Virus record (IMG/VR): IMGVR_UViG_2778261121_000003
Coordinates: 1-45,596 of that record
Strand: one strand, 5' to 3'
DNA from: a virus
Taxonomy: Duplodnaviria; Heunggongvirae; Uroviricota; Caudoviricetes
DNA length: 45,596 nt
Shown: positions 28,553 to 34,894 of the stretch, piece after piece
Position numbering within the stretch: the first letter of the stretch is position 1
Layout: each line of letters opens with the position of its first letter
Position numbers and translations under genes: made by a program
The notes under the pieces: generated by a model
Seen by the model: the letters and a program-made list of their open reading frames with translations, nothing else
Told to the model about the DNA's origin: nothing
The model's database searches: none

Positions 28553-31500
28553 ATGTGGTACAGGGAAGGTACTATCACATTTACACAGGGTAGTAATACT
28601 CTAGTTGGGGTTGGGACAGCCTGGAACGTAACAGCTAATGGTGTGTTGCCGGGAATGATCGTCATTGGTCCCGACAATAAGCTGTATGAGATCAAGCGTG
28701 TAACCAGTGATACGAATATTGTTCTCTCAGAACCTTATACCGGCGAAACTCAGTCTGAAGTTCCGTGCCGAATCATTACGACCTATGAAGGCGACTTAAC
28801 ACAGTTTAGCGCGCGCTTTACTGCGCTAATGTCGCGTATGTCGGCTGATTCCAAGTCCATGCGCAGTTGGTTGACTGCGCTGGATGAGGTGACAATCGAG
28901 CGTGAAGACGGTACAGAAGTGACCGTTAAGCCGCTGATGCAGATCGTCAACGAGCACAACGAAAACGTTGAGTGGTATAAAAATAACACCGACGCGATTG
29001 ACGCTGCTGGCGACAAAGCTCGTGAGGCGGCGGCCAGTGCTGCCGCAGCAGCAGAAAGCGCCAATACCGCTGGAGAAAAAGCATCTCAAGCGTCTCAAAG
29101 TGCACAGGCTGCAGCTTCGTCACAAAGTGCCGCTAGCGCGAGTGAGTCTGCTTCAAGGGTATCTGAAACGAACGCAGAATTAGCAAAAGAAGCAGCTGCA
29201 CAATCGGAGGCTATCGCATCATCAGCAGCTGCTGCGGCTAATGAAAAAGCTATAGAGGCCACAAATCAGGCAACAACTGCGAAAAATTATGCATTAGAAG
29301 CAAAGTCATCTGAATTAAATGCAAAGGCTTCAGAAGACAATGCGGCTTCCTCTATGGCCGCAGCTGCTGAATCTGCAAGTTCTGCGTCTTCATCAGAGAG
29401 TTCTGCTTCTGCTTCAAAAGATGAGGCTGCACGTCAAGCATCTGAGGCTGCTGGAAGTGCTGTGATAGCGTCAACAAAGGCAACAGAGGCGGAAGGCAGT
29501 GCTACGGCTGCATCTCAGAGCAAAACTGCTGCTGAATCCGCTGCGATACGTGCAGAAGCTGCCGCTGATCGTGCTGAGGAGATTGCCGGTGCAGTTGCGA
29601 TGGAAGACGCAAGTCTTACAACTAAAGGTGTTGTGAAACTTAGTAGTGCTGTCGACAGCACCAGTGAATCGCTGGCCGCAACGCCAAAAGCAGTTAAAGC
29701 AGCCAATGACAATGCAAATAGCAGGTTGGCGAAAAATCAGAACGGTGCAGATATCCAGGATAAATCAGCTTTTCTGGACAATGTTGGCGTCACCAGCCTG
29801 ACGTTTATGAAAAACAACGGAGAAATGCCGGTTGATGCTGACCTGAATGCTTTTGGCCCCGTTGAGGCTTATCTTGGCGTCTGGTCTAAAGCAACATCCA
29901 CCAACGCAACACTGGAGAAAAATTTCCCGGAAGATAATGCTGTCGGTGTGCTTGAGGTTTTTGCAGCTGGCAATTTTGCAGGTACGCAACGCTTCACCAC
30001 GAGAGACGGCAATGTATACATACGCAGACTCGCCAATAAGTGGAATGGCTCTGATGGTCCGTGGGGCATATGGCGTCACACTCAATCAGCTACCCGCCCT
30101 TTGAGTACGGCTATAGACCTGAATACGCTTGGAGCCGCCGAACATCTTGGTTTATGGCGTAACAGTAGCTCGGCTATAGCTTCATATGAACGCAATTATC
30201 CAGAGGAAGGCGGCTTTGCTCAGGGGATGCTTGAGATCCTCGAAGGCGGAAATTATGGAAGAACGCAACGTTATACCACTCGCCGTGGAAATATGTATGT
30301 CCGCTGCCTTGCGGCAAGCTGGGATGCATCAAATCCGCAGTGGGAACCGTGGTTAAGAGTCGGTCATCAGTCAGAGAGCCGTTATTACGAAGGTGATTTG
30401 AATGTTCTAACCGACCCTGGTATTTACAGTGTGACGGGTAAAGCGAGCAATGGTCCATTGCTGGATTCATCCGGTGCAACACTACTAGGGGTGTTAGAGG
30501 TTATCAGACGTTTTGATTACGTTGCCGTATTGCAACGCTATACCACAACAGGGACAGGAACGACAACGAAAGGTCGCTCATATGAACGAGTCTATACCGC
30601 CAGCTCATGGAGCGAATGGCGGGAAGTCTACACCTCGTATTCACTTCCCCTGAATCTGGGTATCGGTGGCGCAGCAGCAAAACTCACCAGTCTGGACTGG
30701 CAGACCTACGACTTTGTGCCGGGCAGTCTGATAACCGTTCGGCTGGATAACATGACCAATATTCCCGACGGTATGGACTGGGGGGTCATTGATGGCAACC
30801 TGATAAACATCGCTGTTGGCCCAAGTGATGATACCGGTACGGGACGCTCAATGCATGTATGGCGCAGCACTGTAAGTAAAGCCAACTACCGCTTTTTTAT
30901 GGTGCGTATTTCAGGAAATCCGGGAAGCCGCACGATCACAGCAAGACGTGTGCCAATTATCGACGAAGCCCAAACCTGGAGTGCTCACCAGACATTCAGC
31001 GGTGGTCTTGGCGGAGAGCTGTCCGGCAATGCTGCTACAGCTACTAAATTGCAGACAGCAAGAACCATCGGTGGTGTAAGCTTCGATGGCACTGCTAATA
31101 TTAATTTGCCTGGTGTTAATGCTGCCGGTAATCAGAACACTACCGGTAACGCGGCCACAGCGACCAAGTTGCAAACTGCTAGAACTATTAACGGGGTGTC
31201 GTTTAACGGCTCTGCGAATATTTCAATACCAACAATTACGTCCAGAGGACGCGTTACTGCGCTCACCGGTACAACACAAGGTGCTGCGACTGGATTGCAG
31301 ATGTACGAGGCATATAACAATGGTTATCCTTCTGATTACGGAAATGTACTTCACTTAAAAGGGGCAACGGCCGTTGGTGAAGGCGAGTTGTTCATTGGCT
31401 GGAGTGGTACAAGTGGCGCTCATGCACCTGTACATGTACGTTCGCGACGAGATACTGATACGGCTAGTTGGTCAGAGTGGGCGCAAGTTTATACGTCCAA

Positions 31501-32320
31501 AGACTCAATTCCGGGTGTTAATGCCACCGGTAATCAGAATACTACTGGCAATGCAGCATCAGCCACAAAGTTACAAACTGCCAGAACAATTGGAGGTGTT
31601 AGTTTTAACGGTACAGCCAATATTAACTTGCCGGGCGTTAATATAGCGGGTAATCAGAATACGACTGGCAATGCAGCATCAGCCACAAAGCTACAAACGG
31701 CTCGAACTATAGGTGGTGTTAGTTTTAACGGTACAGCCAATATTAACTTGCCCGGTGTGAATATAGCGGGTAATCAGAATACGACTGGTAATGCTGCAAC
31801 CGCCACAAAATTGCAGACAGCAAGGAAAATTGCTGGTGTGGCGTTTGATGGCTCTGCCGATATAACTTTGACTGCGACTAATGTTAATGCTTATACGAAA
31901 ACAGAGGTAACAAACCTTCTAAGTTCCTATGTGAAGAGCACTGCTCTTCCAAGCATGACTGTGCGAACTTCCTCTGTTTCTGGTGGGGATATGGGCATGA
32001 GTTTGTCTGCATTCATTAGCCACCTTAGATCAAATGGAGCGTTTAGCAAAAGTTATTGGATTGGCTTTGGCGATGCTATGGGATTCAATGCTGGCAGTAT
32101 AAACAATATAACGGGATTTGGTGCTGTAGAATTAGCAGAATCTATAATCGAAGTTTTTAATCTACCTAACGGTGATTATACAATTCGTTTAACAACGTCA
32201 CACAAAGCTGATTACGGTGGAGTGACAAACGCAATCCTCGTTTATCACTACCGTAGTAATAGAAGTCCGTCAGGTCAATGGCTTAAATTTGCCGGTACTG
32301 TTGGGGCAACAAGCAACTGA
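28553..32320 (+). CDS. long tail fiber protein (repeat-containing)
   Basis: 1255 aa; N-terminal Ala/Ser/Glu-rich low-complexity helical region; five copies of a ~40-aa module NQNTTGNAA(S/T)ATKLQTARTIGGVSFNGTANINLPGVN with near-identical 120-bp DNA repeats. Confidence 0.85.
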   Translation: MWYREGTITFTQGSNTLVGVGTAWNVTANGVLPGMIVIGPDNKLYEIKRVTSDTNIVLSEPYTGETQSEVPCRIITTYEGDLTQFSARFTALMSRMSADSKSMRSWLTALDEVTIEREDGTEVTVKPLMQIVNEHNENVEWYKNNTDAIDAAGDKAREAAASAAAAAESANTAGEKASQASQSAQAAASSQSAASASESASRVSETNAELAKEAAAQSEAIASSAAAAANEKAIEATNQATTAKNYALEAKSSELNAKASEDNAASSMAAAAESASSASSSESSASASKDEAARQASEAAGSAVIASTKATEAEGSATAASQSKTAAESAAIRAEAAADRAEEIAGAVAMEDASLTTKGVVKLSSAVDSTSESLAATPKAVKAANDNANSRLAKNQNGADIQDKSAFLDNVGVTSLTFMKNNGEMPVDADLNAFGPVEAYLGVWSKATSTNATLEKNFPEDNAVGVLEVFAAGNFAGTQRFTTRDGNVYIRRLANKWNGSDGPWGIWRHTQSATRPLSTAIDLNTLGAAEHLGLWRNSSSAIASYERNYPEEGGFAQGMLEILEGGNYGRTQRYTTRRGNMYVRCLAASWDASNPQWEPWLRVGHQSESRYYEGDLNVLTDPGIYSVTGKASNGPLLDSSGATLLGVLEVIRRFDYVAVLQRYTTTGTGTTTKGRSYERVYTASSWSEWREVYTSYSLPLNLGIGGAAAKLTSLDWQTYDFVPGSLITVRLDNMTNIPDGMDWGVIDGNLINIAVGPSDDTGTGRSMHVWRSTVSKANYRFFMVRISGNPGSRTITARRVPIIDEAQTWSAHQTFSGGLGGELSGNAATATKLQTARTIGGVSFDGTANINLPGVNAAGNQNTTGNAATATKLQTARTINGVSFNGSANISIPTITSRGRVTALTGTTQGAATGLQMYEAYNNGYPSDYGNVLHLKGATAVGEGELFIGWSGTSGAHAPVHVRSRRDTDTASWSEWAQVYTSKDSIPGVNATGNQNTTGNAASATKLQTARTIGGVSFNGTANINLPGVNIAGNQNTTGNAASATKLQTARTIGGVSFNGTANINLPGVNIAGNQNTTGNAATATKLQTARKIAGVAFDGSADITLTATNVNAYTKTEVTNLLSSYVKSTALPSMTVRTSSVSGGDMGMSLSAFISHLRSNGAFSKSYWIGFGDAMGFNAGSINNITGFGAVELAESIIEVFNLPNGDYTIRLTTSHKADYGGVTNAILVYHYRSNRSPSGQWLKFAGTVGATSN

Positions 32321-32440
32321 TTTAGATATTATTTATATGGCTGTGAGGTTTAAAAATGCGATCTCACAGCCGTAATCATAGGGATATATTATTGAGTTAC
32401 GAGATACGAATTTGAACAGTCGTTAAACGAAATACTGTAT

Positions 32441-32524: not shown

Positions 32525-32848
32525 ATGTCGAACGAGATGGCGGGCGTTACAACTGAGCAAGTTGAGCGTATAGCCGCGATCGTTGCTCGGGAGGTTGTTG
32601 GCAAATTAGGTAAAGAGCTACGTGAAGAAATTGGCCAGGAGGTCAACGATCAGCTGAAAACCTACTTTGGTGATATGACCCCGGCGCAACATAGTATTCA
32701 ACACTCCAACCTGGACAAACTCCTTAACCGGTTAGATTCCATCTCAAGTGGGTTCTTTGGCGGCATTGTTTCTAAAATAACGTCGTTCATTATTACCGCA
32801 CTGCTTTTGGGGTTAGCCGCGTATGGCGTAAAAAATGGACTGCAATAA
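32525..32848 (+). CDS. putative holin-like lysis protein (single C-terminal TM segment)
   Basis: Preferred start ATG 32525 with GGAGG SD; hydrophilic N-terminus and C-terminal hydrophobic helix FFGGIVSKITSFIITALLLGLAAYGV; first gene of the lysis block. Confidence 0.4.
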   Translation: MSNEMAGVTTEQVERIAAIVAREVVGKLGKELREEIGQEVNDQLKTYFGDMTPAQHSIQHSNLDKLLNRLDSISSGFFGGIVSKITSFIITALLLGLAAYGVKNGLQ

Positions 32849-32861
32849 CAGGAGATCAAGG

Positions 32862-33554
32862 ATGAAGACTCCGAGAGGCATTCGTAATAATAACCCCGGT
32901 AATCTTGATAAAGGATCACCGTGGCAAGGTCTGGTTGCGAATCCAGACGAACCGCGCTTTTGCACGTTTAAAGACCCTGTTTGGGGGATTCGTGCGCTGG
33001 CGGTGACTCTAATTACCTACCACGACAAACGTCGCGCAAAAGACGGCTCAAGTATCGATACCATTCGTGAAGTTATTGAACGTTGGGCACCGCCGAATGA
33101 AAACAACACTGACGCCTACATTAATGAGGTGTCTAAAGCCGTTGGTGTAACCGCAGACATGATCATCGATCTGCATGATTACGACATCCTTCGACCTTTG
33201 GTTGAGGCAATCATTCGCCACGAGAATGGTCGAGGTCCACTAAAAACGCTGAACACCTGGTATGCGACAGAAGTTATTGAGGAAGGCCTGCGTCGGGCTG
33301 GCGTCGTTAAGTCGGTGAAAACCGTGAAGGCTGTTCCTGTAACTAAAGAAACCGCAGGCGCAACTGTTACCGCAGGGATTGGTCTGGCGCAGCTTGCCGA
33401 TGTTATGCCGCAGGTTTCCGCTGCTATGGATAAGGCACAAGGCCATATCTCTAGCGGGGATACAGTACGCATCATCTTCGGTATTGCCACTATTGTTGTG
33501 GCCGGATTCATTGCCTGGTCGCAGGTAAGAAAACACCAGAAAGGGATGGTTTAA
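32862..33554 (+). CDS. putative endolysin / peptidoglycan hydrolase (family not recognised) with C-terminal membrane anchor
   Basis: Start ATG 32862 with GGAG SD; located between the holin-like gene and spanins; C-terminal hydrophobic helix IIFGIATIVVAGFIAWSQV; catalytic family not identifiable by eye. Confidence 0.4.
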   Translation: MKTPRGIRNNNPGNLDKGSPWQGLVANPDEPRFCTFKDPVWGIRALAVTLITYHDKRRAKDGSSIDTIREVIERWAPPNENNTDAYINEVSKAVGVTADMIIDLHDYDILRPLVEAIIRHENGRGPLKTLNTWYATEVIEEGLRRAGVVKSVKTVKAVPVTKETAGATVTAGIGLAQLADVMPQVSAAMDKAQGHISSGDTVRIIFGIATIVVAGFIAWSQVRKHQKGMV

Positions 33555-33555
33555 T

Positions 33556-33807
33556 ATGCTAGGCAGCCTGATGACAAAGCTAAAAGTTGCTTTGATTACG
33601 CTGGCTGCCGTTCTTTTCGTTCTGGTCGGCGCTTATACGATGGGCGGAAATGCGGCGCGACGAGCAATGGAAGAGAAGGCAAAACAGGAAGACAGAAAAC
33701 GACTTCAAAACACAGTGAAAGTGGTGAATGAGACGAGCAGTAAAATACGTCAGAAAGATGCTTCTGCCGTTCATCGTGAGTTGTATGATAAGTGGGTGCG
33801 TCATTAA
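33556..33807 (+). CDS. i-spanin (Rz-like)
   Basis: 83 aa; N-terminal TM helix (LKVALITLAAVLFVLVGAY) followed by a charged helical region; an o-spanin lipoprotein ORF overlaps in a different frame. Confidence 0.7.
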   Translation: MLGSLMTKLKVALITLAAVLFVLVGAYTMGGNAARRAMEEKAKQEDRKRLQNTVKVVNETSSKIRQKDASAVHRELYDKWVRH

Positions 33808-33943
33808 ACCACAAACAGCCAGCGTGTTGTTCTGCGATGGGGCTGAGCCTATCTATATCAGCAATAATGATGTAATGACTGAAGAAACCGAACGCCAAAT
33901 CCTTTTTCACAATACGATGGGAGAGAGGGTTTGTGGTTGGTGA
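33728..33943 (+). CDS. o-spanin (Rz1-like outer-membrane lipoprotein)
   Basis: Signal peptide with lipobox MISGC (LLPFIVSCMISGC); overlaps and extends beyond the i-spanin gene. Confidence 0.7.
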   Translation: MRRAVKYVRKMLLPFIVSCMISGCVIKPQTASVLFCDGAEPIYISNNDVMTEETERQILFHNTMGERVCGW

Positions 33944-33950
33944 TGTCGAA

Positions 33951-33972
33951 GTTCCCCTCAAATGAGGGGAAC
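33951..33972. terminator. hairpin between convergent genes (possible bidirectional terminator)
   Basis: GTTCCCCTC-aaat-GAGGGGAAC between the o-spanin stop and the stop of the minus-strand toxin gene; no clear T-tract. Confidence 0.4.
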
Positions 33973-33975
33973 ACA

Positions 33976-34497
33976 TTATTCTTCGAACAATTTTTCGATA
34001 GATTTTGTAGGATAGAACAAAGAACGCTCGTTGTTACCAACCAGCTGGATAAAGCCTAAACTTTTATAAAACGCCTTGGCTTTGTCATTTAACGCCTCAA
34101 CGAAAAGTCCATGAATGCCTACAGCAAGAGATGCATTGTACACAACGCGCATTGCATGTGTTACAAGCATTGAGCCAAATCCTTGACCTTGAAGGGACTT
34201 GTCCAAAGCCAGCCTACCCAAAGTAACACTTGGAACATTCCGATAAGGAACCTTCTTTTGTTTGCTTCTTGAAGGTAAGGACTCCTTTTCAAAGCAGCTG
34301 CCTGACAAAGTGTAATACCCTAACACTTTGGGTCTGTCTTCTTTAGTGCAAAGCACATAAGCGCGAAGAATTTTTCCCTCATGCTGCCTTTTTAAGTGGT
34401 TGGTTAAAAAGGCATTTAGTGATTCTTCACCGCAATCAAAACCATTCAAATCATAATCTTTCTCTCCAGAGAAAATTTCTATCTTTATATTATCCAC
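33976..34497 (-). CDS. GNAT-family acetyltransferase toxin (TacT/AtaT/KacT-like)
   Basis: 173 aa; GNAT motif LQGQGFGSMLV; size and sequence character typical of GNAT toxins paired with DUF1778 antitoxins; GTG start 7 nt after the antitoxin stop, with GGAG SD. Confidence 0.8.
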   Translation of the reverse strand: MDNIKIEIFSGEKDYDLNGFDCGEESLNAFLTNHLKRQHEGKILRAYVLCTKEDRPKVLGYYTLSGSCFEKESLPSRSKQKKVPYRNVPSVTLGRLALDKSLQGQGFGSMLVTHAMRVVYNASLAVGIHGLFVEALNDKAKAFYKSLGFIQLVGNNERSLFYPTKSIEKLFEE

Positions 34498-34504
34498 GAG
34501 TAAA

Positions 34505-34774
34505 CTACTCCATGCTTTTCAGACGATCAGCAGCTCGTTTCAGCTTGTCGTTCGGTGCCGGAGGATTGCTTATAGCGTCCATAACCAGATTCCAGGATTC
34601 TTCATTCAGAACTAGTCTACGGTGTTGCTCTATAACTTTCACGGCACGTTCAGATGCACTGCTAACCATAAACTGAGTAATGCTCTGGTTAGACATTGCG
34701 GCAGCTTCCTCGATGATGCTTTTATCGTCATCGGTTAATCTCAAATCGATGCGCTGCTTTTTTAGTGCTGACAT
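34505..34774 (-). CDS. DUF1778-type (RHH) antitoxin (TacA/AtaR-like)
   Basis: 89 aa from ATG 34774 (AGGAGG SD); RIDLRLTDDDKSIIEEAAAMSNQSITQFMV...NPPAPNDKLKRA matches the DUF1778 antitoxin pattern; directly upstream of the GNAT toxin. Confidence 0.8.
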   Translation of the reverse strand: MSALKKQRIDLRLTDDDKSIIEEAAAMSNQSITQFMVSSASERAVKVIEQHRRLVLNEESWNLVMDAISNPPAPNDKLKRAADRLKSME

Positions 34775-34894
34775 GTATTCCTCCTGATGGCCGTGATGTA
34801 GGAAGGCCATCAATCTCCTCTGTTCAAACTGAGTTTTCGACTCAAAAATTACTTTAAAAGGCTATAGCCCATTACGTGTGCATTATCAAATTGT

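Follow-up and report, generated by a model that had tools for sequence, protein, structure and literature searches.

Predicted lysis cassette of an SSU5-like phage-plasmid with an Enc34/M4Lys-type endolysin and a conserved, probably tail-anchored protein in the holin slot

RESULTS

Organization of the lysis locus

The present study concerns a putative lysis cassette at positions 32525-33943 of a 45,596-nucleotide (nt) viral sequence (Caudoviricetes; IMG/VR record IMGVR_UViG_2778261121_000003, positions 1 to 45,596), hereafter called the window. Four open reading frames (ORFs), all on the plus strand, follow one another in the order X, endolysin, inner membrane spanin (i-spanin), and outer membrane spanin (o-spanin) (Table 1). 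An earlier note, drawn up from the sequence alone, had proposed a lysis cassette at this place; the four ORFs are indeed present, with matches to PHROGs profiles that rule out a chance arrangement. The cassette is located directly downstream of a tail-fibre gene (28553-32320) encoding 1255 amino acids (aa) and upstream of a convergent toxin-antitoxin pair.

Table 1. Position of the cassette genes, of the two parts of the endolysin gene, and of the downstream hairpin in the window
Feature	Position	Strand	Description and basis
Gene 1, X	32525-32848	+	107 aa; predicted tail-anchored membrane protein; family phrog_5093
Gene 2, endolysin	32862-33554	+	230 aa; GGAG ribosome-binding site upstream
Gene 2, catalytic domain (aa 1-150)	32862-33311	+	PHA02564, Enc34/M4Lys type
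Gene 2, membrane module (aa 151-230)	33312-33554	+	Hydropathy, charge, homologue alignment; stop codon after
Gene 3, i-spanin	33556-33807	+	83 aa; phrog_1026 match
Gene 4, o-spanin	33728-33943	+	71 aa from ATG 33728; alternative ATG 33758; phrog_1275 match
Terminator-like hairpin GTTCCCCTCAAATGAGGGGAAC	33951-33972	+	Pattern scan, consensus match only

At the nucleotide level, the cassette region is 97.4% identical to that of Escherichia phage Cyrano and 82% identical to that of Salmonella phage SSU5, with the same gene order, and both records label these four genes holin, endolysin, and spanins. The genes downstream of the cassette (ParA, helicase, primase, and ligase) are also those found in Cyrano. 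On this sequence resemblance, we assign the window to an SSU5-like phage-plasmid and the cassette to its late lysis functions. SSU5 gp26-gp30 and Cyrano gp22-gp25 are the orthologous cassettes, sharing 96-100% identity for X and 93-99% for the endolysin in an unchanged order; they do not differ in substance from the cassette of the window, and their annotations rest on position only. Scans of all four cassette proteins against Pfam and NCBIfam gave no significant match.

Gene 2, a predicted endolysin of the Enc34/M4Lys type

The gene 2 product begins with a hydrophilic sequence (MKTPRGIRNNNPGN...) that extends over its first 30 residues, and its hydrophobic segments outside the catalytic domain are all C-terminal. 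It thus carries neither an N-terminal transmembrane helix nor a signal-anchor-release (SAR) segment, as already observed in the earlier note, and no weakly hydrophobic signal-anchor of the kind known from SAR endolysins precedes the catalytic domain. The previous reader could not assign a standard catalytic motif because Pfam and NCBIfam hold no model for this protein, and neither database returned a significant model here. The profile search then recommended for the 32862-33554 product, together with sequence searches, did give its class, which is that of Enc34 and M4Lys (PHA02564). In the PHROGs profile scan, gene 2 matched the endolysin family phrog_873 (1.6e-87); residues 3-151 matched the Enc34 ORF39 domain (PDB 7Q47_A) by phmmer with E = 1.3e-53, and BLASTP of the catalytic domain against 7Q47 gave 59% identity over 161 aa (E = 3e-65).

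The active site is conserved as well. Residues W75, Y86, and E121 (codon 33222-33224) correspond to Trp79, Tyr95, and Glu131 of Enc34, the 7Q47 chain numbering being offset by one from the numbering in PMC8943055. All three are invariant in a seven-sequence alignment (A2) of the window protein with those of SSU5, Chivirus ST-101, two Aeromonas phages, and Proteus phage PM87, and with a soluble Nonagvirus homologue. The Enc34 ORF39 catalytic domain has been crystallised; it is all-helical, with a fold similar to the lysozyme alpha-lobe, and lyses permeabilised Escherichia coli, Pseudomonas aeruginosa, and Hafnia alvei. Its catalytic residue is Glu131, and it shares Trp79 and Tyr95 with enzymes of the GH73 and GH23 families (PMC8943055). 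We assign the N-terminal domain of gene 2 to the same lysozyme-alpha-lobe-like glycosidases, with E121 as the predicted catalytic glutamate.

By tblastn with gene 2, the domain was found in 793 phage records, and in 186 of them the match covered at least 80% of the query length. Endolysins of Chi-like phages (Chivirus) align to gene 2 with 99% coverage and ~55% identity, membrane module included. A Chi-like homologue, M4Lys of Salmonella phage BSPM4, has N-acetylglucosaminidase activity and lyses E. coli alone, the co-encoded holin-slot protein ORF_37 being unneeded; a Sec inhibitor failed to stop this lysis, which was lost on removal of the C-terminal domain or of just its last 13 residues (PMC7143992). 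Altogether, we classify gene 2 as an Enc34/M4Lys-type endolysin, that is, a PHA02564 domain followed by a C-terminal membrane domain, and its muralytic activity as well as a lysis that depends on the membrane domain are predicted from Enc34 ORF39 and M4Lys. That another gene provides the endolysin, the outcome that would have overturned the earlier proposal, appears unlikely, since the annotation of the closest relative (108-kb genome) shows no further endolysin or holin within its first 100 kb.

The PHA02564 domain also occurs in other settings. It forms the N terminus of large virion proteins, namely Gp29 (1295 aa, PDB 9vvp_L) and the gp16-like internal virion proteins of T7-like Kayfunavirus, and matches PHROGs that bear the labels "tape measure protein" or "tail injection transglycosylase". 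In Nonagvirus phages, it constitutes a soluble endolysin of 144 aa.

The C-terminal membrane module of the endolysin

From N to C terminus, the module (aa 151-230) consists of a Lys-rich linker, helix 1, the loop DKAQGHISSGDTVR, helix 2, and the basic tail RKHQKGMV. Helix 2 (aa 204-224, nt 33471-33533) is strongly hydrophobic, with a mean hydropathy of 2.07. Helix 1 (aa 163-189, nt 33348-33428) is weak, with a mean of 1.11 and 52% Gly/Ala/Ser/Thr, and has some likeness to a SAR segment. The earlier description of an endolysin ending in a single hydrophobic helix was therefore a fair one, with one strong helix and a second weak one. The count also varies for the homologous domains: the Enc34 authors report two helices (PMC8943055) and the M4Lys authors one (PMC7143992).

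The linker carries a charge of +5, the loop 0, and the tail about +3, a pattern that recurs in five homologues. Moreover, the homologues of Chi-like, Aeromonas, and Proteus phages have in common the Lys-rich linker, the weak helix, an SSGD loop, the hydrophobic helix, and an R-K-x-Q/R-x-G tail. The module is predicted to tether the enzyme to the inner membrane. Under the positive-inside rule, a basic linker, a neutral-to-acidic loop, and a basic tail would give a hairpin with both ends cytoplasmic. Hence, we conjecture that the module is a helical hairpin of this orientation, which would amount to a class II holin or pinholin layout fused to the enzyme. Homology of the tail to known holins was rejected at the sequence level by hmmscan against PHROGs and Pfam, nor did that scan reveal any likeness in sequence to pinholins. 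When the C-terminal 81 aa served as query in a word-indexed search for fusions of the module to different catalytic domains, the hits were all fragments of this one protein and thus uninformative on such fusions.

A similar layout was seen in one distant cassette headed by an X relative (L091, 1157-1408), which encodes an 83-aa protein with a weak Gly-rich helix, a strong AGFIA-containing helix, and a charged tail. It shares this layout and the AGFIA motif with the endolysin module; the similarity is not significant and may be compositional.

Gene 1 (X) belongs to a conserved family of predicted tail-anchored proteins

Gene 1 is preceded by GGAGGA 5 nt upstream of its ATG and separated from the endolysin gene by 13 nt. 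As noted earlier, its product ends in a single hydrophobic helix: the only hydrophobic segment spans aa 81-99 (Kyte-Doolittle 19-residue mean of 2.02) and is followed by ~8 residues. X is 100% identical to the protein annotated "Holin" in Cyrano, and its sole profile match is phrog_5093 (8.2e-69), a family of unknown function. Scans of X and of 30 aligned family members against Pfam, NCBIfam, and the holin PHROGs gave no match, and all 30 members fall in phrog_5093; the caution expressed earlier over the identity of the holin was thus well founded. Homology of X to the "lysis protein B" of Chi-like phages was rejected, BLASTP giving no similarity (E = 16).

Close homologues of X are confined to enterobacterial phage-plasmids. 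Among GenBank phages, X is found in 12 records, all SSU5-like, and its 90%-identity representative cluster contains 448 member sequences. A genome scan retrieved SSU5-like elements only (Xenorhabdus, Photorhabdus, Morganella, Kluyvera, Buttiauxella, and two metagenome-assembled genomes), and a scan with a degenerate DNA motif gave one true locus of ten. Distant relatives were found neither by single-protein scans of IMG/VR nor by a first metagenome scan, and tblastn of two distant members against GenBank phages returned SSU5-like records only. A profile search of 1.8 billion representative proteins retrieved 59 relatives (E <= 1e-3) of 94-143 aa, all with the same architecture.

The family alignment (A3) displays a charged, net-acidic, helical N-terminal domain with invariant G49, H56, and H60 and a nearly invariant D71, followed by the single C-terminal membrane helix. 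Only 1-16 residues follow the helix (29 in one member), with a net charge of -2 to +2 (+1 in most members), and the charged C-terminal tail expected of a holin is not seen. We discarded the idea of a dual-start motif in X: Met5 varies across the family, and an upstream in-frame ATG overlaps the Shine-Dalgarno sequence. Owing to its 8-17 Lys/Arg and the lack of a signal sequence, we infer that the N-terminal domain is cytoplasmic and that X is thus tail-anchored. An AlphaFold2 model built from 30 diverse homologues reached a predicted local distance difference test (pLDDT) score of 86.7 and is confident locally; the one built from 13 close homologues (pLDDT of 48) was unusable. In the former, two long helices (aa 10-48 and 53-103) are joined at the conserved GDMT turn, and the second runs into the membrane. 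When this model was compared by Foldseek with the PDB and with structures predicted for viral proteins, no hit had an E value under 1.

Genomic context of X

X lies immediately upstream of the Enc34-type endolysin in each of 80 IMG/VR loci. Those of its distant relatives that could be placed head lysis cassettes in six independent contexts, where endolysins of other classes and then spanins follow. The genes that follow X there are a Peptidase_M15_3 endolysin, an 83-aa two-helix protein, and a spanin (L090/L091); an M15-like protein, a 106-aa two-helix protein, and an Rz-like spanin (L088); a Peptidase_M15_3 endolysin and then the contig end (L094); a Holin_2-3 protein and an endolysin of the SLT type (lytic transglycosylase) whose N terminus carries a membrane segment (L092 and L093); and a three-helix holin-like protein, a putative endolysin with a hydrophobic N terminus and no Pfam match, and spanins (L110). 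All five distant contexts with enough sequence encode a separate small protein with 2-3 hydrophobic segments, and these holin candidates belong to Holin_2-3 or show a weak match to the holin family phrog_8226. SSU5-like cassettes have no separate multi-helix holin candidate besides the endolysin's own tail. We think that this tail may supply at least part of the membrane breaching that a separate multi-helix holin would perform in the related cassettes.

The Aeromonas phages 4_4512 (L004) and vB_AhyS-A18P4 (L005) carry an Enc34-type endolysin and overlapped spanins with an empty holin slot, which fits an endolysin able to act without an adjacent holin. Since the slot is empty in these phages and filled by an unrelated protein in Chi-like phages, the holin-slot gene is exchangeable and the endolysin-spanin unit conserved. 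X has the traits of size and position expected of a holin, being a small protein with one membrane helix that adjoins the endolysin gene. From its sequence and its surroundings, X is very probably associated with lysis.

Spanins

Genes 3 and 4 are assigned, from their sequences, to two-component spanins of overlapped architecture, the o-spanin belonging to the Chi family. The gene 3 product has an N-terminal membrane helix (aa 11-29) followed by a charged helical periplasmic part and matches the Rz-like spanin family phrog_1026 (7e-25). Gene 4 lies in the +1 frame, starts inside gene 3, and ends beyond its stop; its product matches the Rz-like spanin family phrog_1275 (1.3e-24). The signal sequence MRRAVKYVRKMLLPFIVSCMISG|C has a basic n-region, then a hydrophobic core, and ends in the lipobox ISG|C; the predicted lipidated Cys is encoded at 33797-33799, and the mature part of 48 aa contains two further Cys. 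The overlapping pair with a lipobox in the alternate frame, which had been recognized earlier, is thus borne out both by the sequence and by the Rz-like PHROGs matches. By eye, the o-spanin aligns with that of the Chi-like phage ST-101, Cys residues included. In a previous classification, the SSU5 i-spanin is a singleton and the SSU5 o-spanin belongs to the Chi family together with that of Enc34 (Kongari 2018).

In the Cyrano record (CYRAN_25, L001 5523-5642), Rz1 is annotated as a 39-aa ORF that starts past the end of Rz and has neither signal peptide nor lipobox. This annotation is too short, and the real o-spanin starts inside Rz, as in the RefSeq SSU5 record.

Across the 80 IMG/VR loci (L008-L087), the identity of the spanins to those of the window (40-100% for the i-spanin, 38-100% for the o-spanin) varies independently of that of X and the endolysin, some loci pairing a 99% identical endolysin with an o-spanin of 63% identity, so that the cassette has to be regarded as a mosaic. 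In one divergent lineage of SSU5-like elements, whose X is ~60% identical to that of the window (L022/L023, 5025-6374), three extra genes stand between endolysin and spanins and encode a 61-aa protein, a 220-aa protein, and a 93-aa lipoprotein.

Flanking features

The toxin-antitoxin pair that converges on the cassette consists of a GNAT/KacT-type acetyltransferase toxin and its antitoxin (33976-34497 and 34505-34813, minus strand). The two units are ~30 nt apart, and the GC-rich hairpin between them, 8 nt past the o-spanin stop, could be a bidirectional terminator; the pattern scan found 1 site against 2.0 expected in shuffles and is weak evidence alone. On the other side, an inverted repeat at 32340-32370 (GCTGTGAG...(15 nt)...CTCACAGC) lies 20 nt past the tail-fibre stop, within the 204 nt that separate this stop from gene 1; it lacks a T-run, and the terminator scan did not report it. 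The tail-fibre protein itself contains ~5 copies of a ~37-aa repeat, GNQNTTGNAA(T/S)ATKLQTARTIGGVSF(N/D)GTANINLPGV, and the Cyrano annotation describes it as homologous to the S tail-fibre protein of phage P1.

DISCUSSION

Our analysis argues for an SSU5-like lysis cassette built around an Enc34/M4Lys-type endolysin with a putatively membrane-breaching tail, in which X would be the timing component and the spanin pair would complete lysis, a reading to which we give a probability of roughly 0.8. Its parts have different bases: homology to tested proteins for the endolysin class and the spanins, experiments on homologues for the membrane module, and conserved position and architecture for the role of X.

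We propose the following sequence of events. Late transcription would yield X, the endolysin, and the spanins, and the C-terminal module would hold the endolysin at the inner membrane. Once abundant enough, or once triggered, this module would compromise the membrane and let the glycosidase domain reach the cell wall. X would set the timing of this step via its membrane helix and its conserved juxtamembrane helix, acting on or with the membrane module of the endolysin. Once the wall has been cut, the i-spanin/o-spanin pair would disrupt the outer membrane. We weakly favour X as a positive trigger, i.e., a holin- or pinholin-like depolariser, over X as an inhibitor. Moreover, phrog_5093 could tentatively represent an unrecognised class of lysis-cassette proteins that gate or time the membrane breach, whose partner in SSU5-like elements would be the pinholin-like tail of the endolysin (a holin-endolysin fusion plus regulator).

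A closely related experimental system is that of the Hafnia phage Enc34 (Cernooka et al. 2022, PMC8943055), whose endolysin shares the catalytic domain, the active-site Trp, Tyr, and Glu, and the C-terminal membrane module; cassette order, overlapped spanins, and o-spanin family are also the same. In contrast, the upstream "holin" ORF38 of Enc34 has an N-terminal membrane helix and a double start, whereas X is unrelated to it and anchored by its C terminus, and Enc34 is a 60-kb Chi-like siphovirus while the element studied here is a 108-kb phage-plasmid. Similarly, M4Lys and the Chi-like "lysis protein A" (Bai et al. 2020, PMC7143992) resemble gene 2 over the full-length architecture, from linker to basic tail. 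The Chi-like endolysin is however paired with "lysis protein B", in which an N-proximal membrane helix is followed by a coiled coil, with no detectable similarity to X. In the Acidovorax phage AP1 (PMC8879335), the endolysin LysAP also has a C-terminal membrane domain, needed for toxicity and lysis, and a ~110-aa holin-slot protein, HolAP, is encoded upstream. Neither protein is homologous to those described here: the catalytic domain of LysAP is a GH24 lysozyme, and HolAP is a member of the Holin_2-3 superfamily whose membrane helix lies centrally. In addition, LysAP is reported to be Sec dependent, whereas M4Lys is not. As the AP1 endolysin combines a non-homologous GH24 domain with a C-terminal membrane domain, this architecture recurs.

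A membrane-tethered endolysin is also found in SAR endolysin/pinholin systems such as phage 21 (S21-68 with R21) and P1 (Lyz). The pinholin layout, in which a SAR-type first transmembrane domain is followed by a second one, resembles the weak Gly/Ala-rich helix, strong helix, and basic tail of the endolysin module. Here, however, the tether sits at the C terminus, which rules out for the catalytic domain the Sec-mediated export known from those systems.

Several points weigh against the reading that we favour. On a Hessa-type scale, only helix 2 of the endolysin module scores as a membrane span, helix 1 falling below this score, and the hmmscan of the module retrieved no holin family, the sub-threshold hits (DUF6187 and SLATT_1) being noise. 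For M4Lys, the authors predicted a single span with a periplasmic catalytic domain, and the membrane domain expressed alone was bacteriostatic, not lytic; in the same phage BSPM4, the slot-equivalent ORF_37, a protein without homology to X, had no lethal effect and caused a slight delay in lysis (PMC7143992). As to X itself, the conserved cytoplasmic residues G49, H56, H60, and D71 and the near absence of a tail make it an atypical holin and could just as well belong to a regulator. The distant contexts number only six and stem mostly from short contigs, and the literature that we searched contained no functional study of an SSU5-type holin and no experiment on any phrog_5093 or SSU5-type protein. 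More generally, the route by which the catalytic domain reaches the cell wall is described as unknown (PMC8943055).

Another explanation, which we consider rather unlikely, is that X is a conventional self-sufficient holin forming holes or pinholes at a set time, with the C-terminal helix of the endolysin as a passive anchor, following the model put forward for AP1, in which a C-terminal SAR endolysin is combined with a pinholin. Consistent with it, X is small, membrane-anchored, and first in the cassette, is annotated as holin in Cyrano and SSU5, and has no other small membrane protein beside it in the cassette; moreover, its relatives stand ahead of soluble M15 endolysins, enzymes that cannot leave the cytoplasm without a holin, and a non-homologous holin speeds lysis by the C-terminally anchored endolysin of AP1 (PMC8879335). 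However, X matches no holin family, it possesses one membrane helix and a ~8-residue tail with neither a charged C-terminal domain nor a conserved dual start, and a separate multi-helix holin candidate is present in every distant cassette with enough sequence. Furthermore, homologous endolysins lyse cells without their co-encoded holin-slot protein, and some are encoded without any holin-slot gene.

X could instead be an antiholin or lysis inhibitor that binds the endolysin membrane module, or the separate holin of its relatives, until a trigger releases lysis; we regard this proposal as doubtful. It would account for the co-occurrence of X with a separate holin candidate in distant cassettes and for the conserved cytoplasmic motif, which suggests specific interaction or sensing and not bulk membrane damage, and a brake would benefit a phage whose endolysin homologue is toxic alone. 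ORF_37 co-expression slightly delayed lysis by M4Lys, but ORF_37 is not homologous to X and its authors blamed expression levels for the delay (PMC7143992). X relatives occur alongside endolysins of three unrelated classes and no fewer than three distinct small membrane proteins, which argues against a single specific partner.

That X has no lysis role and is a membrane protein standing between the tail and lysis modules, e.g., a superinfection-exclusion or tail-fibre-associated factor, is improbable. Genes for Cor-like and other membrane proteins do lie between the tail fibre gene and the cassette in SSU5, and X is always just downstream of tail genes; the upstream tail genes nevertheless differ between contexts, and X is separated from, or overlaps, the next lysis gene by 0-20 nt in SSU5-like and all distant contexts, whatever the endolysin. 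Least plausible of all is gene 2 as a virion-associated or injection-stage lysin. The PHA02564 domain does head Gp29 and T7-like gp16 and matches tape measure and injection transglycosylase PHROGs, but gene 2 encodes a stand-alone, membrane-anchored 230-aa protein between holin slot and spanins that aligns over its full length with endolysins lysing cells from within, and over its first 100 kb the closest relative has no second annotated endolysin.

The cassette as such has annotated orthologues in SSU5 and Cyrano, and its endolysin class has already been published. The phrog_5093 family and its position at the head of diverse lysis cassettes are, as far as the searched literature shows, undescribed. 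Gene 1 is neither a catalogued holin nor an orphan, but a member of a conserved family heading cassettes with three endolysin classes.

SSU5-like phage-plasmids are common in Escherichia, Klebsiella, and Salmonella, and some of them carry resistance genes, e.g., CTX-M-15; lysis of their hosts is hence of practical interest. The function of X may bear on the timing of lysis in this group and might explain the release of C-terminally anchored endolysins. If the endolysin tail and X do act as a holin-endolysin fusion plus regulator, this pair would offer a handle on how C-terminally anchored endolysins reach the cell wall.

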